From contig JAOTUY010000005.1 in NCBI GenBank assembly GCA_029863625.1, positions 1,495 to 65,494 of the forward strand: a DNA stretch of 64,000 nucleotides, written 5' to 3'. The stretch is from Acidimicrobiia bacterium (GTDB lineage: Bacteria > Actinomycetota > Acidimicrobiia > Spongiisociales > UBA4744). The notes under the pieces are model-generated. The model worked only from the letters and a program-made list of their open reading frames with translations. It made no database searches and had not been told where the DNA came from. The translations under genes and the position numbers were made by a program. Of the stretch, positions 1-34,142 are shown piece after piece; the stretch's first letter is position 1, and each line of letters starts with the position of its first letter.

Positions 1-52
1 TCGTCCGGGCCGCCGGTGCGGTCACGACGATCTCGTATCGCCCGGTGGTCAC
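1..52 (-). CDS. ParE/RelE-like toxin, N-terminal fragment truncated by the window edge
   Basis: Reverse strand from position 52 reads GTG ACC ACC GGG CGA TAC GAG ATC GTC GTG ACC GCA CCG GCG (VTTGRYEIVVTAPAARD...). This resembles the ParE/RelE N-terminal pattern (x-Y-x-[IV]-x-[FV]-[TS]-x-x-A-x-x-D-L). The GTG overlaps the stop of the upstream antitoxin as GTGA. Confidence 0.3.
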   Translation of the reverse strand, partial: MTTGRYEIVVTAPAART

Positions 53-318
53 CGAGGGCGCAGGGCTTGGACGGCCTCGACGCCGCGGACCACGTCACCG
101 TCCAGGTAGGCGCGGTGCGCCTCCACCAACTCCGCCACCGCCTCGGAGTCGCCGAGCATGGCCAGCGTTTCTTCGAGTGACTCAAGATCATCAGGGCTGA
201 TCAGCACCGCAGCGGGTGTGCCGTTCTTGGTGACGACCACCCGTTCATGGTGGGTTTGCACTCGGTCGATGAACTCCGAGAAGTGGTCCCGGACTGTACG
301 CAACGATTCACTGGACAT
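49..318 (-). CDS. Phd/YefM family antitoxin
   Basis: The translation MSSESLRTVRDHFSEFIDRVQTHHERVVVTKNGTPAAVLISPDDLESLEETLAMLGDSEAV is a textbook YefM/Phd core (VVxTKNGxPxAVLISxDDxESLEETLxxL). The start is taken at the internal Met because the long ORF's N-terminus (MWLFPFVDGCGTIVA) is not antitoxin-like. Confidence 0.8.
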   Translation of the reverse strand: MSSESLRTVRDHFSEFIDRVQTHHERVVVTKNGTPAAVLISPDDLESLEETLAMLGDSEAVAELVEAHRAYLDGDVVRGVEAVQALRPR

Positions 319-474
319 GGCCACAATTGTGCCACACCCGTCGACAAAAGGGAATAGCCACACCGATCACCAAACATGAGTCCGGTATTGGCACTCGATT
401 GCTGTTCAGACTGTCGACCACGCGGAATGGCGACTCCTAACCCCGCTTGTCTGGTCGGTTGTCGCTCAGTCTCC

Positions 475-502
475 GGTGTTGGGTGTTGGGTGTTGGGTGT
501 TG
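475..502. repeat. tandem heptamer (GGTGTTG)x4
   Basis: The sequence GGTGTTG GGTGTTG GGTGTTG GGTGTTG is read directly at 475-502, in non-coding-looking DNA between the TA module and the tRNA-like fragment. Confidence 0.7.
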
Positions 503-707
503 GTGGGCGTTCGTTTCTAGGCAGGATCACCCATTCAGGCGCACGAGGTGTTTCGTCGCCGAGGTGGACGACTAATCGACGCGACACATCACTCACACTC
601 CTGGGCCGCGACTGGGCGCGGGAGAACCGAAAACGACGCGAAATATCGCGAGCTGCTGCAAGCCAAAACATCAACGTTTATAAGAGTATTTGCCGGATCT
701 GCCCATG

Positions 708-771
708 GAGCCGGAACCCCCTGAATGGACTCTTAATCCCAAGGTCGTGAGTTCGATTCTCACCGGGCTCA
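708..771 (+). other. tRNA-Lys(CUU)-like 3' fragment (anticodon arm, variable loop, T-arm and acceptor 3' strand; no D-arm)
   Basis: 727-771 reads ggaCTCTTAAtcc-caaggtc-GTGAG-TTCGATT-CTCAC-cgggctc-a. That gives an anticodon loop CUCUUAA (anticodon CUU), a 5-nt variable loop, a perfect T stem-loop (GTGAG/TTCGATT/CTCAC) and an acceptor 3' strand plus discriminator. The only upstream complement is a 7-nt stretch gagccgg (708-714), 6/7 pairs. No D-arm (tagctcagttggtagagc-like) is present, so at 64 nt it is too short to be a functional tRNA. Confidence 0.45.
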
Positions 772-1024
772 CTGCTTGCCCATTCCCCTGTCGTTCCTTG
801 ATGCGACGATTTCCGGGTTCACAGAGATGAAACGAAGCATCCCACGCGTCCCGGGGAGACGGACCGCCGGACGCCCTGAATCAATATCAGGCTTCCCAGC
901 CCGGAATCGCGCAAGCAGCTTGAAGACGCGCGCCCAGCACGAACAACCGACCCGTCATCAAGCGCCAAGATCTGCAGCCAGCGCCACTCTCCTCCTAGGC
1001 TGCCCAAGAGGAGCGGGCTAGACC

Positions 1025-2036: not shown

Positions 2037-4151
2037 TCAGGCTTCCATGACACCTTCCCGGGGCAGCAAAGCAGGAATGATGACCAGCGCCGTCAAAGCA
2101 GCAGTCGTCATCGACACCCACATGATCATCGAGATGTGCGGATGGATACGGAACGGCGACAGCCAGAGCGCGGTGAGCGCGACGGCGATCCCCAGGGCGT
2201 TGGCGATGATCGGTCGGCCGGCCCGGTCGACGGCTCGCAGGACATACCCGTTCCCCTCTCCACGAGCGAAATCGATGGCCGCCACGAAGTGAATGGCGTA
2301 GTCGATGCCGACCCCGATAACGATTGAAGAGATGACGGCCGTCACCAGATTGAGCTGAATGCCTGAAGCCGCGATGAACCCCAACAACATGGCACTGGTG
2401 AGCAACAGCGGCACCAGGCTCACGACGGTTTGGCGCCACTTGCGATAGGCCAAAGCCAGCATCAGGGTCACAAGACCGTAGGCGACGGCCAGGGAGATGA
2501 ACTGGGCTCGCAGGACCAACCGGGCCACTTCATCCCAGATGACGGGCATACCGGTCAGGATCCGGATCTCCTTCTTATCGTCGGCGTAATCGAGCCATCC
2601 CTGCAGATCTACGGTCTCGAAGGCACCCGGCAACAGCATGAACCGGAGTCCGTCCTCTGATGCCATCTGACCGAGCGGCAAGGGTGTTTCCCCGCTAAGT
2701 GCCCCCAGAAGCTGATCATCCGGGACCACCCCTTGTAGATCGGCCAGGCTGAAAATGGTCCGGATACCCGGGAGCTGTTCGAACTCCCTCGAGAGTTCCG
2801 CGACGGGGGCGAGACCGGCTAAGCCGTCAGCCCGATCGTAGGCGTACTCACCGATCAGAGGGGTTGCTCCGCCGAAGAGTTCCGCGGTCTTCTCAAATCC
2901 GAGGCGGACCGGGTCGTCTTTCTTGAAATAGATGAGCTGATCGCCGTCGACCTGCAGTTGCGGGATGAAGACGCCGGAAAAGGCAATCAGGACTCCGGCC
3001 AGAACCGCCGCTACCCACCGCCGCTTGGCCAGCTCTTTGACGGCAGACGTGAGACGGGGGCCGAGCAGCGCCGTGCGGTGCTTCGGTTCGACGTGAATCC
3101 GGCTGAGCAAAGCGGGTAGCGAGAAGAACGAGATGATGCCGGCGAAGACGATTCCGGCCGCTGTGAAGGATCCCAGCTGGGCGATCGGTGCGACGCCGGC
3201 AAATATCAGCGACAGAAACCCGGCGGCGGTGCTGATGGTGGTGAGGATCATCGGAACCCCGACCTGGCGGAGTGTCGACGTGACCCGATCGACTTCATCG
3301 GAGGTGCGGTCGACCTGTTCCTGGTAATGGGTGACGAAATGGAGACCGTCGGCGGAGCCCATCACGATCACGAAGATCGGCACCAGGATGGTGACAATGT
3401 CGACTTCTCGTCCCAGGGCGAAGATGAACCCGAACGTCCACACCGAGCCGAGTAGGGCGGGAAACACCGCGAATATGGTGAGTTTGCGGTCGCCTACGTT
3501 GGCGTAGAAAACGGCCAGTAATAAGAGGACGATGACCGGCGGGATCACAATGAGGAACCAGCTCATCTTGTCGAGCATCGAGGCGAAAATGACTGGATTG
3601 CCCGAGAGGGTCAGCTCCAACCCGTCGGGGGCAGTCACATCGTTCACCGCCTGCGCCACTGCCAGCGAATCGCCGAGCGGAACGACCAGCATCAGCGTGC
3701 TTCGGCCGTCATCACTGACCAGTAGATCGGCCAGGGGATTCTGTCCGAGGAGATCGGTGATTACCTGCTCGGGAACAAGGGCGATCTGGTCCGCCGTCAA
3801 TGGCGCACCGGTGAGCGGGTTGACCTCGGGAATGATCGAACCAACCTGGCCGACACCCTCGATACCGGCCAACGTGTCTCGAAGTTCGCCCACTGCCACC
3901 AGGAGATCCTTCTCGAGCAGGCTGCGACCCTCCGGTGCCGAGACCAGAACGTTGATCGGGTCACCCGTCTCGTACTTCTCCTGCAGGGCGACCCAGGCCT
4001 CACCCGTTTCGTTCCCCTCAGTGATGAACTTGGACACGTCGGCGTTGAACGACATCCGGAACAGCATGGCCAACGAGACGAGGGTGATGATCCCGGTGAT
4101 CGCCAGCACTCGCTTGGAGTGCTCAACAAGGAATCTGGCGATGCGGTCCAT
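2037..4151 (-). CDS. MMPL family (RND superfamily) membrane transporter
   Basis: 704 aa. An N-terminal TM helix (VLAITGIITLVSLAMLF) is followed by a large periplasmic domain and two blocks of about six TM helices (e.g. VIVMGSADGLHFVTHY, GIGVGIDYAIHFV), the classic MMPL/RND layout. Confidence 0.85.
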   Translation of the reverse strand: MDRIARFLVEHSKRVLAITGIITLVSLAMLFRMSFNADVSKFITEGNETGEAWVALQEKYETGDPINVLVSAPEGRSLLEKDLLVAVGELRDTLAGIEGVGQVGSIIPEVNPLTGAPLTADQIALVPEQVITDLLGQNPLADLLVSDDGRSTLMLVVPLGDSLAVAQAVNDVTAPDGLELTLSGNPVIFASMLDKMSWFLIVIPPVIVLLLLAVFYANVGDRKLTIFAVFPALLGSVWTFGFIFALGREVDIVTILVPIFVIVMGSADGLHFVTHYQEQVDRTSDEVDRVTSTLRQVGVPMILTTISTAAGFLSLIFAGVAPIAQLGSFTAAGIVFAGIISFFSLPALLSRIHVEPKHRTALLGPRLTSAVKELAKRRWVAAVLAGVLIAFSGVFIPQLQVDGDQLIYFKKDDPVRLGFEKTAELFGGATPLIGEYAYDRADGLAGLAPVAELSREFEQLPGIRTIFSLADLQGVVPDDQLLGALSGETPLPLGQMASEDGLRFMLLPGAFETVDLQGWLDYADDKKEIRILTGMPVIWDEVARLVLRAQFISLAVAYGLVTLMLALAYRKWRQTVVSLVPLLLTSAMLLGFIAASGIQLNLVTAVISSIVIGVGIDYAIHFVAAIDFARGEGNGYVLRAVDRAGRPIIANALGIAVALTALWLSPFRIHPHISMIMWVSMTTAALTALVIIPALLPREGVMEA

Positions 4152-4386
4152 GGCTTCCTTTCGATGGCCACACTAGATCAACCACTTTGACCATCCCCTC
4201 CAGATGAGCCAGCCAAATCCTGGGACATATGCACGGGCCGGATGGAACAGGACTCGTTATGCAAGAAATCCGCCCTTCGACTTAGAAGGAACCGGTGGCA
4301 TGCACCATCCGAACCGTTATTGTCGCGCTCCCCGGTGCAGGGTGGAGGACTCTCCTTCACTCAATCCGGATTGGAAGAGGTAGGGA

Positions 4387-5670
4387 ATGTCCAGAAGCGG
4401 CTTGCGTCATGAGCGAGTCCTCGACCTGATCGAGACGTCGATGGGACATGGTGTCGAGGCCGGCGTCATCCGCCTCCGCGTCGACGACCAAGCTTCGGCG
4501 GGCGACACCATCACCTTGGGCGGCCGACCCCTGGTCAATTTCGGTTCCTGCGCCTATCTGGGCCTCAATGTCGATCCACGACTGAAGCAGGGAGCTATCG
4601 ATGCGATTCGACGTTTTGGGCCGGTCTTCTCGTCTTCGACCGCCTACACCTCAATAGATCTCTACACATTGCTCGAGGACCGGCTCGCCCAAATGTTTGG
4701 GACGGGGCACATTGTTCTCCCGGCCACTACCACGCTCGGCCACCTTGCGGCCCTCCCTGTTCTCGTTTCGCCGGACGATGTTGTTCTGATCGACACCCAG
4801 TCTCATGCTTCACTACGCCTCGCCACAGATGTCCTGCGGGGAAGGGGAGTGTCTGTCACCGATCTTCCTCACAACGACATGTCTGCGCTGGAGTCAGCCA
4901 TCCAAAAGGCCGAATCCAACCGTGTCTGCCGTATCTGGTATATGGCCGACGGGATCTACTCAATGCATGGGGACGTCGCCCCGGTACACACGATCGCCGA
5001 CCTGCTGGATCGCCACCCGGCTCTGCATGTTTATCTGGATGATGCCCATGGTTTCGGATGGCGCGGGAAACACGGGCGGGGCTATGTGCTCGACAAGACC
5101 CCACTGCATGAGCGCATGGTGATAGTGGTTTCGCTGGCGAAGTCGTTCGGTACCGGGGGCGCCGCGCTTCTGTTCGCAGATCCCGCGACCGCCCGACGGG
5201 TCTGGCTCACCGGCGGCACGCTCACCTTCTCCGGGCCCATCCATCCGGCCGAACTCGGAGCTGCCGTCGCCGCGGCCGAAATCCACCTGTCCGACGAGCA
5301 GGCGGAGCGCCAAACCAAGCTGATCCGCCAAATCGACTTCGTCAGAGATCTGTTGGTCGAGCATCAGCTTCCGGTCGTGTCCCTCGACCCGACCCCAATC
5401 TGGTTCATTCGGGTGGGTCGCCACGACCAAGCGATCAACTTGGCGAAGCGGCTCATGCAGGACGGTTTCTACACCAATACGTCGGCATTTCCGGCCGTGC
5501 CGCGCGGGAAGGGCGGGATTCGCTTCACGCAAACGCTATATCAGACGGATGATCAGATACGCGCGCTCATTAATTCTATGGCCCGACACGTGCCAGAAGT
5601 TGTCGACGAACCGGGAGTAATCGTGGATCTGACCGAAGAAACAGCGCAGCCCGCGGCCAAGAGCGCCTGA
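4387..5670 (+). CDS. PLP-dependent alpha-oxoamine synthase family acyltransferase (8-amino-7-oxononanoate synthase / serine palmitoyltransferase-like)
   Basis: 427 aa with aminotransferase class I/II fold features: GSCAYLGL, a DDAHGFGW-type PLP aspartate region, and SLAKSFGTGGA with the Schiff-base lysine. It is divergent from the MMPL gene. Confidence 0.8.
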   Translation: MSRSGLRHERVLDLIETSMGHGVEAGVIRLRVDDQASAGDTITLGGRPLVNFGSCAYLGLNVDPRLKQGAIDAIRRFGPVFSSSTAYTSIDLYTLLEDRLAQMFGTGHIVLPATTTLGHLAALPVLVSPDDVVLIDTQSHASLRLATDVLRGRGVSVTDLPHNDMSALESAIQKAESNRVCRIWYMADGIYSMHGDVAPVHTIADLLDRHPALHVYLDDAHGFGWRGKHGRGYVLDKTPLHERMVIVVSLAKSFGTGGAALLFADPATARRVWLTGGTLTFSGPIHPAELGAAVAAAEIHLSDEQAERQTKLIRQIDFVRDLLVEHQLPVVSLDPTPIWFIRVGRHDQAINLAKRLMQDGFYTNTSAFPAVPRGKGGIRFTQTLYQTDDQIRALINSMARHVPEVVDEPGVIVDLTEETAQPAAKSA

Positions 5671-5734
5671 AACACCGTCGAGCGCCCGGCAAGACCAACC
5701 CCTTCAGTTCCTGGTCCTGACCTGCCGATATCTG

Positions 5735-7429
5735 TTGCGAATGCAATCGACGGCCCCCCGTTATCGAACCGTTCTCAGGGGCACCGTCCCAACGGGATTC
5801 CGATGGGGCGTCGCTCTTGTTTTGGTGGCGCTCACCCTGGCATGCGCAGCGGTCATAACCATCCCTGCGCAAAAGGACGCGATCGGCCCACCTGGTATGT
5901 TGATCGGAGTGGGGGCCGTAGGCATTCTGCTGGTGCGGTCCTCCCGCCACATGGACGGTCGCGACCGCCGGGCCTGGCGGTTGATCGGAATGGGTTTCCT
6001 GGTAGTTGGGGTTGGCATTCTCACCATTGCGATCCTGGACGTGGCATTCGGCCCGATACCGGCATTTGGACCTCCCGATATCATCGTTATCGCCGGGTAC
6101 GCCCTTGTTCTCGCCGGATTCGGCTCACTGCCCCATCTCAGCACCAGCAAACCACAGCGGGTCCGTATCTACCTCGACAGCGCGATCGGCGCCATCTCAC
6201 TTGCCGTCGTGATGTGGGTGCTGTTTCTCGACGAGCTCATCGCTGCTTTCGCGCAGGCGAATGCGTGGGAAAGGTGGGCAGGATCCATCTACCCGATTCT
6301 CGACGTTGCTGCCTTGATGGTCGTGGTCATCGTGACGGTGCGCCGCAGCAGCTACCGGTTCGACCTTCGGCTCATGTTGTTCGGGGTCGGCATCGTGGTT
6401 CAGTCATTGGCGGATCTGACCCTTTTGAAATCGGGTTTCGGTCAGACCTTCGGCGAGGCCGAACCCAACTACGTCATGTTTCTCCTTGCGGCCCTCGCAT
6501 ACGTGGCCGCTGCCAGCAACGCCAACCGACAGCCAAAACCCCGAGCTTATGCGGATCGCAGGGCTTCCCTGATATCGATGGTGGCGCCCTACTCCGCGGC
6601 GGGGATCTTGGTCATTGTCCTGATAATCGAGATGCAAGCGTCGCAGCTGACGACTAATGCCAGGATCGTTCTCTACGCCACCCTATCCGTCGGAGTTCTG
6701 GTCATCATCAGACAGGGAGTGGCGATTGGCGAAAACCGTCAGCTGGTCGAAAGGCAGCGTGCCGAATTAGTGTCGTCGATCTCCCACGAGTTGCGGACGC
6801 CCCTCACCGCCATTGTCGGGTTCCTCGATGTCATGACCGACGAGGAGGCAGGGATAGATGAAGCGGAGACTCGTGAACTCACCGAAGTCATCCATGAACA
6901 AGCCCGGCACATGTCCCAGATCGTGTCAGATCTAATCCTTCTCGCTCGAGGATCACCCGACGAGTTGACGCTCAAGGAATCCCTGGTCTCGATCGCCGAT
7001 CTGGTCAAGGGCGCCGTGAGATCAGTCGAGCAGAAGACCACATCTCTGACCATCGAAGTTGAAACCCACCTTCAGGGCAGCCTCGATGCCGGTCGAGTTC
7101 AACAGGTCATCGTCAACCTCCTGACCAACGCTGTTCGCTACGGAGGAGACAGAAGCCTGATCGTGGTAAAACGGGAAGGAACCGATCTGGCCATAGAGGT
7201 CCACGACAACGGCCCCGGCGTGCCCAAGAAGTTCGAGTTGGCGATCTGGGAACGCTTCGAGCGGGGGCCGAATCGTTTCAACGCCAGCACTCCCGGATCT
7301 GGTATCGGCCTGGCCGTGGTGGATGCCATCACAAGGGCACACCACGGCAGCACCGCCTATCGGCAATCGGAACGCCTGGGTGGCGCCTGCTTCCGGGTGG
7401 TACTGCCCAACCGAGTCAAAGCGGCCTAA
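5735..7429 (+). CDS. membrane sensor histidine kinase
   Basis: The N-terminal roughly 330 aa carry many TM helices. They are followed by an HisKA H-box (SHELRTPLTAIVGF) and HATPase_c N/G boxes (NLLTNAVRYGG, GSGIGLAVV). Confidence 0.85.
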   Translation: MRMQSTAPRYRTVLRGTVPTGFRWGVALVLVALTLACAAVITIPAQKDAIGPPGMLIGVGAVGILLVRSSRHMDGRDRRAWRLIGMGFLVVGVGILTIAILDVAFGPIPAFGPPDIIVIAGYALVLAGFGSLPHLSTSKPQRVRIYLDSAIGAISLAVVMWVLFLDELIAAFAQANAWERWAGSIYPILDVAALMVVVIVTVRRSSYRFDLRLMLFGVGIVVQSLADLTLLKSGFGQTFGEAEPNYVMFLLAALAYVAAASNANRQPKPRAYADRRASLISMVAPYSAAGILVIVLIIEMQASQLTTNARIVLYATLSVGVLVIIRQGVAIGENRQLVERQRAELVSSISHELRTPLTAIVGFLDVMTDEEAGIDEAETRELTEVIHEQARHMSQIVSDLILLARGSPDELTLKESLVSIADLVKGAVRSVEQKTTSLTIEVETHLQGSLDAGRVQQVIVNLLTNAVRYGGDRSLIVVKREGTDLAIEVHDNGPGVPKKFELAIWERFERGPNRFNASTPGSGIGLAVVDAITRAHHGSTAYRQSERLGGACFRVVLPNRVKAA

Positions 7430-11989: not shown

Positions 11990-13466
11990 TGCCGAACACC
12001 GGGTCGTCGTTCCCGAAGGAACCGTAGACGTCGATCACCGAGCCGGCGCCCAGGCTGGTTGTGTTGATAGCAGCCAGACACCAGGTGGCCTGAACCAGGT
12101 CGGTGTCAATGACCCCAACCAGGCTCGGGAACAGGTCATCGCCAACACCCGGATCCGGACCTGCCAGCTCGGGGAACAAGCCCTCTTCTATCGCGGCAGC
12201 AGGCCGCAGATTGCAGGCCTGCATGTCCACCAGCGGAGCCGGTCCGTCCAGATCACGATCGTATTGGAGGATCGGCTGCGGGTCACTCGGGCTTCGACTG
12301 TCGAAGACAATGTCACCCCGGTAGTTGGCGGTGATATCGGGACTGAACGGATCAAACGAAACGAACAACGTTGTCGCGTCCATGGTGTAGGGCTTTGGTG
12401 GTCCCGAACATCCAGCGGCAACATCATCGTTACTCGTGAAGATCCTCTTGATGAACGAGGTGAAGCCCGCCTCATTTGTGGCTTCGGCAGTATCACCGCA
12501 GTCCAGTTCACCGTCGTAAACGATCACATCCCTGACCACTCGTATCGCATCATTTCCGGAAGTGTCGGATGCCTCGTAAGTGATTGTGTAGTTACCAGCT
12601 GTAGTCACCAAGCCACCGTCCACGGGGACCGTGGAAGTCCCATAGACGATGTCGTCAGGATCGAAGTTATCTCTGAAGTCGGCACCTGGATCGATGAATT
12701 CATCGCCGACAATGAAGATCAGGGGATTGCCTCCAATCAGAGAAAGCACCGGGGCTTCGCTGTCGGTGGCCATTGTGAAGTACGTGTCATACCCTGCCCC
12801 GGGGTCGTCCAGCAACGAAACTGACCCATCGGCTGGAGAAGAGACGCTGATTTCGACGGCATCGAAAAGGTAGCTTTCACCAACAGCCGGCAGCTCGAAC
12901 AGATGCCGGTCGTCGCCCGAGTCGGGCCCACAATCACTGCCTAAGCACGCGAACGTTGCAGGCGTCCCAATCTCAGATCCATCCTTGAAGGCCTGGATCT
13001 CGCCGGTCGCCCCGAACTTCAGTTTGATCCCGAACTGGGCCTGGTCGGCATACCAATGGCCGATGATGAGACCGGCCAACTCAATCCTGAGGATCTCACC
13101 GCGGTCCAACTGCGTGCCGTTGATCCTCGCACAGGGTGTCCCATTGCCCTCACCCTGGGCTAACACGCCCAGAATGTGGTCTTTGAGGCCTGGTCCAGGG
13201 TTATTACGGTTGGCCTCGGCCGAAAGTTCGACAAGTAGGTGGCCGCTCGGATCAGGATCATTGACGCGACAACCCGACCTACTCAGAGCCTGCGTATAGT
13301 CCGGTGACCCCCCAGCCGGACCCAGCGTGAACTTGTCGCCGTCAGTGTCGTTCATCACGAGGTCGAGTCTTTGACCTGGGACTCCTCCCGAAGCTATCGA
13401 GGCCGTCACCAGCAACGCTCCGACCATGCCGACCACGAGCGCAAGAATCGTCAACTTGCGTTTCAT
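11982..13466 (-). CDS. secreted protein with Ig-like (DUF5011-type) domain
   Basis: The signal peptide is MKRKLTILALVVGMVGALLVTASIASG (start taken at this Met, not the upstream Met of the long ORF). The internal segment PVLSLIGGNPLIFIVGDEFIDPGADFRDN...TAGNYTITYEASDTSGNDAIRVVRDVIV matches the DUF5011/Ig-like pattern. It is convergent with the cyclase gene, overlapping it by 8 nt. Confidence 0.7.
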   Translation of the reverse strand: MKRKLTILALVVGMVGALLVTASIASGGVPGQRLDLVMNDTDGDKFTLGPAGGSPDYTQALSRSGCRVNDPDPSGHLLVELSAEANRNNPGPGLKDHILGVLAQGEGNGTPCARINGTQLDRGEILRIELAGLIIGHWYADQAQFGIKLKFGATGEIQAFKDGSEIGTPATFACLGSDCGPDSGDDRHLFELPAVGESYLFDAVEISVSSPADGSVSLLDDPGAGYDTYFTMATDSEAPVLSLIGGNPLIFIVGDEFIDPGADFRDNFDPDDIVYGTSTVPVDGGLVTTAGNYTITYEASDTSGNDAIRVVRDVIVYDGELDCGDTAEATNEAGFTSFIKRIFTSNDDVAAGCSGPPKPYTMDATTLFVSFDPFSPDITANYRGDIVFDSRSPSDPQPILQYDRDLDGPAPLVDMQACNLRPAAAIEEGLFPELAGPDPGVGDDLFPSLVGVIDTDLVQATWCLAAINTTSLGAGSVIDVYGSFGNDDPVFGIR

Positions 13467-14579: not shown

Positions 14580-15172
14580 GAGTCGTGCGTCTCCCAGAAC
14601 ATGGCCACGGCGCCGAGGTGGCGGCCTCCCTGGCCTTCAACCGGAAAGGCGGTGATCGCCAGAATCCGCCACACCCCGTCGAGGCCCCTCACTCGCACCG
14701 TGTCGTGACTGGGCACCCGCCCGACCAAGGCGACAACGATTGGCAGCTCAGCATTCGGATAGGGCTTCCCATCAAGCCTGGTCGTATGGAAGTGCTCGGC
14801 GAGCTGATCGGCATTAATCTCACCCGCCTCCTCGAAGCGGACCCCGAGCAACGCCTCCGCCGGTTCGTTGTAGTAGAGGAGATTCCCAGAATCGTCGATC
14901 AGCCAGACGGGGAGAGCGAGGTAGGAGGCCCACTGCTTGAGGAGGATGAGCTCGATCGGCTGTTGGGCCATGTGCCTCCCGTTCGGATTCAGTTTTCCAT
15001 CATGACGCAAAACGGGTATGTCTGCACGAAGTTCTTCGGAACCTGTTGCGACCAAAAAGTCGGGGTCAGAGGTTGAGCCGTCCAGCCCGCCCTCCTCCAT
15101 TACTTGAACAGCCTGACGGTAGCCGGCGTCGATCAGCCCGAACGCCGAGAGCAGCCCGACATGGTCGACCAA
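14576..15172 (-). CDS. stand-alone PAS-like sensor domain protein
   Basis: 198 aa. The segment LPVWLIDDSGNLLYYNEPAEALLGVRFEEAGEI...PIVVALVGRVPSHDTVRVRGLDGVWRILAITAFPV has PAS-fold spacing. There are no TM segments or output domain. It is operonic between the two MBL genes. Confidence 0.6.
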   Translation of the reverse strand: MVDHVGLLSAFGLIDAGYRQAVQVMEEGGLDGSTSDPDFLVATGSEELRADIPVLRHDGKLNPNGRHMAQQPIELILLKQWASYLALPVWLIDDSGNLLYYNEPAEALLGVRFEEAGEINADQLAEHFHTTRLDGKPYPNAELPIVVALVGRVPSHDTVRVRGLDGVWRILAITAFPVEGQGGRHLGAVAMFWETHDS

Positions 15173-27938: not shown

Positions 27939-28013
27939 GGGGGCGTGGTGAAGCCTGGAGTTCACGCCGGCCTGTCAAGCCGGAGGTCGCGGGTTCAAAT
28001 CCCGTCGCTCCCG
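27939..28013 (+). tRNA. tRNA-Asp (anticodon GUC)
   Basis: Hand-folded cloverleaf. Acceptor gggggcg/cgctccc with a G-U pair, D-arm, anticodon stem ccggc/gccgg with loop CUGUCAA (anticodon GUC), variable loop aggtc, T-arm gcggg-ttcaaat-cccgt, discriminator G. CCA is not encoded. Confidence 0.85.
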
Positions 28014-28051
28014 CCGGTGATTCTCCAGCTGCGCCCGGCACGGGCGCACCC

Positions 28052-28127
28052 GGCCAGGTAGCTCAGTTGGCAGAGCACAGGTCTGAAAAACCTGGGGTCG
28101 GCAGTTCGATTCTGCCCCTGGCCACCA
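28052..28127 (+). tRNA. tRNA-Phe (anticodon GAA)
   Basis: ggccagg-ta-gctc-agttggca-gagc-a-caggt-CTGAAAA-acctg-gggtc-ggcag-ttcgatt-ctgcc-cctggcc-a-CCA. A perfect cloverleaf of 76 nt with encoded CCA. Confidence 0.9.
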
Positions 28128-33173: not shown

Positions 33174-33725
33174 TCACCCGGTGACCGTGATCATCCCGGT
33201 CATGGAGGGGTGGATGGTGCAGATGTAGGCGTAGGTCCCCGGGGTGCTGAACGTGAAACTGAAGCGATCGTCGGGGAACAGGGTGGCTGCCCACACCCCA
33301 TCGTTCGAAGTCGTGGTGTGGTTGAAGCCGTCCCTGTTCCGCCACCTGACCGTCGTTCCCTTGCTAACCGTGGCGTTCGCCGGTTGGAAGGCCGACCCCG
33401 AGATGTCGATCTCGAACTCGCCGCCGCCGGCGGTGGTCGACGTCGTGCTCGAAGAGGTGGACGACGTCGCGCTCGAAGAGGTGGACGACGTCGCGCCCGA
33501 AGAGGTGGACGACGTCGCGCCCGAAGAGGTGGACGACGTCGCGCCCGAAGAGGTGGACGACGTCGCGCCCGAAGACGTGGACGTGGTCTCTGCAGACGTT
33601 GTCGACGTGACCTCCGCAGTGGAAGTACTCGCGGTATTCGCGGTCTCCCCGGTGTCGTCACCACATGCAGCGACCACCAGGACAAACGCGGCAAACCACA
33701 CCATCCAACAGATCCGGCGATTCAT
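33174..33725 (-). CDS. cupredoxin (plastocyanin/azurin-like) lipoprotein with a Ser/Thr-rich repeat linker
   Basis: The N-terminal MNRRICWMVWFAAFVLVVAACG is a signal peptide with lipobox. The linker repeats SGATSSTSS four times. The C-terminal domain ends in YAYICTIHPSMTGMITV, the type-1 copper site C-x2-H-x4-M, with an upstream His (FNHTT). Confidence 0.75.
   Translation of the reverse strand: MNRRICWMVWFAAFVLVVAACGDDTGETANTASTSTAEVTSTTSAETTSTSSGATSSTSSGATSSTSSGATSSTSSGATSSTSSSATSSTSSSTTSTTAGGGEFEIDISGSAFQPANATVSKGTTVRWRNRDGFNHTTTSNDGVWAATLFPDDRFSFTFSTPGTYAYICTIHPSMTGMITVTG
33427..33590. repeat. 24-bp tandem repeat (about 5.5 copies) inside the cupredoxin gene
   Basis: gaagaggtggacgacgtcgcgc[c/t]c repeats head-to-tail from about 33451 to 33570, with degenerate copies at each end. 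In frame on the minus strand it encodes the SGATSSTSS units. Confidence 0.75.
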
Positions 33726-34142
33726 GCTTCCCCCTCGTTCCATGTGCTTCACACGACCCACGTCGCCGACGGCGACGAGTCTCCATCTGCCGTTCCAGGG
33801 TCGCCAACACGTTCGGGTACTCCCCTCGCGACACGCCCACCATCAACTGGACCACCGAAAACGCTTCGTCGGCCCACCTGAGTCCTCTCTTGTCGAGCCA
33901 GTACGCATCTTGTCGGAGACAGTACGCAGCCCGAGAGCGATTCGGTTCCCGGGAGACTGCTTTTACTCGGCGCCGGTGCCCCAACGGGATCGGACCTTCT
34001 GGCTGACACCCGAACCTTCGGCAGCATATTTGGCGATCTCGGGCGGGAAGCTCAGTTGGTGCCGAGGGGCTTGTTGGCGTGACCTGCGTCTGTGCTGCCG
34101 CTCAGACGGATTTGCGTCCTCCTATGACAGGTCCAGTACCTG

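Follow-up and report, generated by a model that had tools for sequence, protein, structure and literature searches.

A displaced tRNA-Lys fragment at the end of a probable integrase-less island in an uncultured Acidimicrobiia lineage

The left end of the 64,000-nt stretch of Acidimicrobiia DNA analysed here (the window) is a textbook tRNA-gene island junction, the minor oddity of which is a long conserved end sequence. Positions 1–771 very probably form the right-hand part of an integrase-less island of 1.83 kb, which belongs to a tandem array inserted at the 3' half of a tRNA-Lys(UUU) gene and is the member next to the chromosome proper. The predicted attR of this island spans 510–771 and consists of an arm of ~215 nt and a displaced tRNA-Lys fragment; the chromosome would resume at position 772. 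From left to right the island comprises a 60-nt left end, an ORF of 190 residues, ParE, Phd, a segment termed seg84, a heptamer array, the 215-nt arm and a 48-nt tRNA fragment, with the first of these elements lying to the left of the window. Observed directly were the repeat arrangement, the intact-tRNA, empty-site and island-free states of the site in relatives, and the absence of an integrase from both the island of the window and that of a related locus (L021). The features are listed in Table 1.

Table 1. Features at the left end of the window (positions in the window; a dot marks features given without a strand).
Feature	Position	Strand	Remark
ParE-family toxin gene, 5' end (~17 codons)	1–52	−	Remainder left of the window
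Phd/YefM antitoxin gene, 89 aa	49–318	−	PF02604, E = 9.7e-18; island cargo
seg84, conserved intergenic segment travelling with the right-end module of the islands	401–484	.	Sequence comparison
GGTGTTG heptamer array, 4.1 copies	475–503	+	TRF, 100% matches, score 58
Conserved arm, ~215 nt, including the 637–650 hairpin and an AT-rich stretch at ~655–700	510–723	+	Non-coding
Displaced tRNA-Lys 3' fragment, tRNA positions 26–73 (anticodon stem to discriminator)	724–771	+	attR core
Chromosomal flank downstream of the ancestral tRNA-Lys site	772–1024	.	Homology to L018 and L023 flanks
Epimerase gene	1025–2029
MMPL gene	2037–4151

Positions 724–771 are identical at 44 of 48 nucleotides to tRNA positions 26–73 of the intact tRNA-Lys(UUU) genes of three related loci (L018, L021 and L022). 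The homology starts exactly at tRNA position 26, on the 5' side of the anticodon stem, and extends over 48 nt to the discriminator; the fragment occurs once within the window. An initial annotation of the same DNA had described a tRNA-Lys(CUU)-like 3' half without a D-arm at 727–771. The fragment is real, but the tRNA-derived block begins at 724 and the anticodon of its source is UUU, CUU being a variant carried by relic copies. Elsewhere in the window only tRNA-Asp(GTC) and tRNA-Phe(GAA) were called (27939–28127, plus strand, 36 nt apart), and no tRNA-Lys was called anywhere in the 64 kb.

ARAGORN did not call the fragment as a tRNA. The Rfam tRNA model aligned to positions 708–771 (E = 0.0014), its 28.5 bits falling just short of the gathering score of 29; six of the seven acceptor-stem base pairs are formed, and the 15-nt D-arm segment is replaced by 7 nt (at the D-arm position, the intact genes of relatives read GTAGCTCAGTTGGCAGAGC and the conserved unit described below reads AACCCCCTG). 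Three of the five anticodon-stem pairs are present in the window copy. Across the copies of the unit the anticodon is TTT, CTT, TTC or TAT, or the loop carries 1-nt deletions, and acceptor pair 2–71 is A·C in most copies. With no complete cloverleaf or D arm, a sub-threshold Rfam score, an incompletely paired anticodon stem and a variable anticodon, the fragment does not have the make-up of a functional tRNA gene. Given the loop variation, the A·C pair at 2–71 and the outcome of the non-coding-RNA tests reported below, the end-to-end Rfam alignment depends on a mostly coincidental GAGCCKG ahead of the genuine 48-nt tRNA block. Homology of the GAGCCTG of the unit to the 5' acceptor strand of the tRNA was considered and rejected as too weak (9 of 11 positions in a shifted register and 8 of 11 unshifted). 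A fortuitous match to tRNA or an artefact of assembly at the contig edge would be in keeping with an Rfam score just below the gathering threshold and with contigs that break nearby, but the probability of such an origin is negligible in view of the close match to syntenic, real tRNA-Lys genes. An artefact is further contradicted by the independent assembly of the same sequence in five or more samples (ENA, JGI and Logan).

The tRNA fragment is the right-hand part of a conserved unit of 264 nt (510–772) composed of the arm and the 48-nt tRNA part. Two contigs, L001 and L004, extend the window leftwards by 1.4–1.6 kb and are identical to it over the shared 1.1 kb. Both place a second copy of the unit 1,831 nt upstream as a direct repeat (92% identical), and the homology between the copies has sharp ends on both sides, the right-hand end coinciding with the 3' end of the tRNA. 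Between the copies lie the elements named above, from the conserved 60-nt left end to the heptamer array. The direct repeat that was to be sought with the 45 nt at 727–771 thus exists, 1.83 kb upstream, but what is repeated is the 264-nt unit. Nor is the upstream partner of the fragment the intact tRNA-Lys gene that had been anticipated, which is found instead in the relatives L021 and L017; the nearest copy is another relic, so that the junction in the window is an inner one within a tandem array.

Eight further independent copies of the unit, together with two decayed or truncated ones, were found by pattern scans and by anchoring on MMPL and HigB homologues, all of them in related Acidimicrobiia. 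Wherever the flank suffices (L013–L021 and L023), the unit occupies the same chromosomal place downstream of MMPL. Three other identities for the unit were considered and rejected: a protein-coding sequence, because the copies differ by indels of 1 and 5 nt that leave no frame intact; a tmRNA or other known RNA family, because ARAGORN and Rfam (E ≤ 1) matched only the tRNA model; and an integron-like cassette array, because the repeats are tRNA-derived and an intact tRNA-Lys bounds the array in relatives. No integron-type features were noticed in the course of comparing these loci.

The site was found in several states in relatives. Loci L018 and L022 carry an intact tRNA-Lys(UUU) and no unit and are empty sites; the DNA 3' of the intact tRNA in L018 shares 82% identity with window 854–935. 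Genes for carbonic anhydrase, LigD and DinB lie beyond the tRNA in L017, L021 and L022. A complete island of ~2.5 kb is present in L021, where the intact tRNA-Lys(UUU) (12550–12625) is followed by the 60-nt left end, a GNAT acetyltransferase, seg84, HigA, HigB and the unit (10331–10063) and then by MMPL, with no integrase. In L017, an intact tRNA is followed after 1.6 kb by a unit without its first 97 nt. The displaced fragment has the orientation of the intact tRNA in both of these loci, and such a pairing of a regenerated tRNA with a displaced 3' fragment at the opposite end is the hallmark of site-specific integration into a tRNA gene. In L023, HigBA and the unit are joined directly to the homologue of window 773–940, from which it follows that the island of the window is an indel bounded by the unit. 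The 60-nt left end is preceded by an intact tRNA in L021 and L017 and by a unit in L004, L016 and L020, and is absent after the tRNA of the empty sites L018 and L022. No tRNA was found on the tRNA side of the unit within 8.7 kb in L019, ~3.5–4 kb in L016/L020 and ~3.3 kb in L014; arrays may therefore be long, or the tRNA may have been lost or moved there. These comparisons bear out the initial annotation on three points. The fragment had been read as the far end (attR) of DNA inserted at tRNA-Lys, which agrees with the direct repeat, the attL–attR arrangement of L021 and L017 and the empty sites; the DNA to the left of about 727 had been taken for an integrated element, and very probably is a unit-bounded island with ParE and Phd; and the empty site to be sought in related genomes is provided by L018 and L022 for the unit and by L023 for the island of the window.

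Contigs carrying the region were traced using the epimerase, Phd and HigB proteins, and all of them end within the array. The epimerase and Phd proteins recur on several metagenome contigs that match the window exactly wherever they overlap it, and the names of MMPL homologues point to the Acidimicrobiia as the group of the organism. The contigs of this organism, which end in ParE, HigB or HigA, reveal only the second relic copy. Independent assemblies (L001–L005 and L025–L028) end in ParE, HigB or HigA or just past seg84. The breaks are consistent with disruption of short-read assemblies by the repeated unit, seg84 and HigA pieces or by strain heterogeneity, and the array would account for the broken assemblies of this population at this point. 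The most likely order in this organism, by analogy with L021, would be tRNA-Lys(UUU), a HigBA island with the upstream unit, the island of the 190-residue ORF, ParE and Phd with the window unit, the epimerase and MMPL.

Such an array could have arisen as follows. A tyrosine integrase would have recombined an attP site, made up of the arm, a core equal to tRNA positions 26–73 and the left end, with the tRNA gene, the crossover falling in or near the anticodon loop. The tRNA would thereby have been regenerated at attL, leaving the arm and the displaced fragment at attR; 510–723 would then be the P arm of the attachment site of the element. Later events would have added, on the tRNA side, a second related island with HigBA and its own copy of the unit, and the islands would have lost, or never had, an integrase of their own. 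The two insertions may have occurred by stepwise accretion at the tRNA or by insertion of one island into the attR of the other. The homology boundary at tRNA position 26 fits the anticodon-centred class of attP sites. Williams reportedly set out a position rule for tRNA attP sites in 2002.

Among the relic copies, changes are concentrated in the anticodon loop of 7 nt (T>C, T>A, A>G and 1-nt deletions). A hand count over window 724–771 and the homologous copies in L004, L012–L014, L016, L017, L019, L021 and L023, which are not phylogenetically independent, gave ~11 changes at 77 loop positions versus ~18 at 451 positions elsewhere. The cluster could mark the crossover (overlap) region.

The only integrase found belongs to another element that occupies the same site. 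In L012, a tyrosine integrase (PF00589, E = 1.7e-22) lies 74 nt after the unit. The integrative element that directly follows the unit there (3354–6840) encodes the integrase (3427–4539, minus strand), an 81-residue phage FDXHR zinc-binding protein and a 636-residue Toprim-containing protein that runs off the contig end. A decayed integrase fragment of the L012 type directly follows the unit in L013 (9215–9463). No integrase gene lies between the two unit copies of the organism of the window or in the complete island of L021, a tblastn search with the L012 integrase returned nothing in the window, and no relatives of this integrase were found in viral contigs. The initial annotation had placed an integrase of the island outside the window; given its absence from both islands, one is not to be expected there.

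The conservation of the island ends raises the question of whether they are still in use. The unit is 90–93.5% identical across the eight other copies, whereas the adjacent MMPL gene is 76.6–85.7% identical at the nucleotide level in the same genomes, and HigB plus the unit is 93–96% identical across them. Together with the sharp outer boundary of the block of seg84, HigA, HigB and unit, these values point to recent horizontal spread or else to selection acting on the ends. One reading is that the loci are non-autonomous mini-islands with selfish toxin–antitoxin cargo, the ends of which (60 nt on the left and roughly 264–370 nt on the right) are under selection and are moved by a trans-acting integrase. 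Both ends are ~90% or more conserved in at least five islands whose cargo is wholly different, similarity between genomes is higher for the unit and HigBA than for the core gene MMPL, the anticodon loop, where the crossover is presumed to fall, varies among the relic copies, and the polymorphism between L023 and the organism of the window is a presence/absence difference bounded exactly by the unit. However, no integrase with arms matching those of the mini-islands was found, and the integrase element of L012 has a left end unrelated to their 60-nt left end. The copies are all confined to a single chromosomal locus within a single lineage, where vertical inheritance with homologous exchange could produce a like picture, and some of them are clearly decaying (L014b and L017). 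Phage and plasmid collections gave no match to the unit or left end except for a 41-nt tRNA-like match in a Haloarcula plasmid, and pattern scans of viral contigs for either sequence returned nothing. We therefore regard mobilization in trans of such mini-islands as improbable. The related proposal that the unit and the 60-nt left end form a selected cis-acting module for excision and re-integration in trans at tRNA-Lys(UUU) across Acidimicrobiia is also unlikely; if it were true, the variable anticodon loop would record repeated crossovers. A decayed, integrase-less island remains the preferred explanation.

The same conservation relative to the neighbouring protein-coding gene could be expected if the unit were a structured non-coding RNA gene with a D-arm-less tRNA-Lys-like 3' domain (a decoy, an antitoxin-like RNA or a tmRNA-like RNA, for instance) that served as a chromosomal integration target and was not a by-product of integration. 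The end-to-end alignment of the Rfam tRNA model with its nearly complete acceptor stem, the L012 integrase gene directly 3' of the unit and the solitary unit of L019, with no tRNA within 8.7 kb, would also fit a gene. Yet the unit coexists with an intact tRNA-Lys in an attL/attR arrangement in L021 and L017, and it folds with an unremarkable energy (plus strand, z = −0.63; minus strand, z = −0.04). The RNAalifold structures differ between runs with six and ten copies, the covariation term is positive and only one or two pairs are compensatory. The substitutions and 1-nt deletions in the anticodon loop and the A·C pair at 2–71 likewise speak against a gene, as do the copies truncated from the 5' side (L017, L019 and L014b), the lack of a match to any Rfam family besides tRNA and the failure to find a sigma-70-type promoter. 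An RNA gene is thus highly improbable, as is the extreme version, in which the unit is transcribed into a D-arm-less tRNA-Lys mimic. The initial annotation had itself named a bona fide tRNA-like RNA as the alternative to be checked; the folding z-scores and RNAalifold lent it no structured-RNA support, and the attR of an island is retained as the identity of 510–771.

The cargo at the left edge of the window is a toxin–antitoxin module. The full ParE gene was recovered from L004 (1383–1649) and also from L001; it encodes 88–92 residues and matches PF05016 (E = 7.2e-9, 36.5 bits against a cut-off of 23). The Phd protein scored 64.2 bits against a cut-off of 29.8 and is identical on five metagenome contigs. 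The GTG start of ParE and the stop of Phd overlap by 4 nt as GTGA (tcac on the plus strand, 49–52). With both domains above their Pfam cut-offs in an overlapping two-gene operon, Phd/YefM–ParE is a predicted type II toxin–antitoxin module. An antitoxin with this overlap and a toxin leaving the window had been noted initially, as had the role of such modules as island cargo; both hold, since ParE/Phd and HigBA lie within islands. The HigB(Gp49)/HigA(XRE) module lies to the left of the upstream unit copy on the opposite strand (L001/L004). The ORF between the unit copies and before ParE (180–190 residues) has no family match; neither this 190-residue ORF nor ORFs of 308, 224 and 243 residues in related islands were matched by Pfam or PADLOC. 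Phd/YefM–ParE and HigB(Gp49)–HigA resemble known type II modules that stabilize islands in having Pfam domains above the cut-offs, a 4-nt overlap of antitoxin and toxin and a location inside mobile DNA, and nothing unusual was apparent in their sequences. The two modules probably help to retain the islands.

The remaining non-coding features noted initially, namely a heptamer array, a palindrome and a locally AT-richer stretch, are all present, the last being modest. The heptamer array has four full copies of GGTGTTG, and L012 and L014 have a single GGTGTT at its position, which indicates a local slippage expansion at the end of seg84. Copies of seg84 (~85–125 nt) adjoin HigA or Phd and are 81–87% identical (L012, L014, L016, L020 and L021). 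The block of seg84, HigA, HigB and unit has a sharp outer boundary, beyond which the DNA differs in five contexts. Outside the window the segment was located at 2183–2307 in L012, 12410–12536 in L014, 11111–11225 in L021 and both 14932–15059 and 19320–19445 in L016; there are two per genome in L016 and L020. It may belong to the right-end module or act as an operator or terminator. The palindrome CGCGA-AATA-TCGCG at 637–650 is followed on the minus strand by TCGTTTTCGG and was flagged as terminator-like; its stem is just 5 bp and is disrupted in L016. The hairpin is probably not conserved. The G+C content is 0.555–0.56 over positions 201–800 versus about 0.60–0.65 in most adjacent stretches, and the AT-rich stretch lies inside the conserved arm. 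Elsewhere in the window, a 24-nt tandem repeat of 6.3 copies (33432–33583, 96% matches) lies inside a minus-strand ORF of 195 residues (33174–33761) with a signal/lipobox-like N terminus and encodes SSGATSST repeats.

The analysis allows a near-threshold tRNA-like match to be annotated as an island junction and not as a gene. It identifies tRNA-Lys(UUU) as a hot spot in an uncultured Acidimicrobiia lineage at which small toxin–antitoxin islands stack in tandem. Should the conserved ends be functional, the islands would be a compact natural case of integrase-less islands mobilized in trans, in a phylum the mobile elements of which are poorly described. Partial tRNA genes that are miscalled as tRNAs in prokaryotic genomes are the subject of PMC9897764. 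The window fragment resembles such cases as a non-functional tRNA fragment scoring near tRNA-model thresholds; it differs from them in that ARAGORN made no call, the Rfam score was sub-threshold and its origin could be traced to a syntenic tRNA-Lys(UUU).

Integration of a genomic island into a tRNA gene regenerates the tRNA at one end of the island and displaces a 3' fragment to the opposite end, which is the principle of Islander (PMC4383910). Sublocation classes of attP sites (Williams, 2002, cited in PMC4383910) include the anticodon-centred class tallied by Islander (Table 1 of that paper). The islands described here share with Islander-type islands a direct repeat equal to the 3' part of the tRNA, from anticodon stem to discriminator and in the same orientation, as well as empty sites in relatives and an integrase-bearing element at the same site in one relative. 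They differ in that the islands of L021 and of the window have no integrase and so would fail the Islander integrase filter, and in that the repeat within one genome is 264 nt long because two tandem related islands share the arm.

Elements that lack integration and transfer genes and keep attL and attR are termed CIMEs (PMC5704250). Such elements and their tandem accretion are described for the ICESt1-related elements of Streptococcus thermophilus and for pathogenicity islands of Streptomyces (PMC5704250). With flanking direct repeats, a 60-nt left end, a 215-nt arm and no integrase, the mini-islands appear to fit the published definition. They share with CIMEs the absence of integration and transfer genes, the retention of attL and attR, a tandem arrangement at a tRNA 3' end and an integrase-bearing neighbour (L012). 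In contrast to the published cases, no ICE or IME was found whose arms would make it the parent. The present islands differ further in their uncultured Acidimicrobiia host, in their very small size (1.8–2.5 kb) and in a recognizable cargo that consists mostly of toxin–antitoxin genes.
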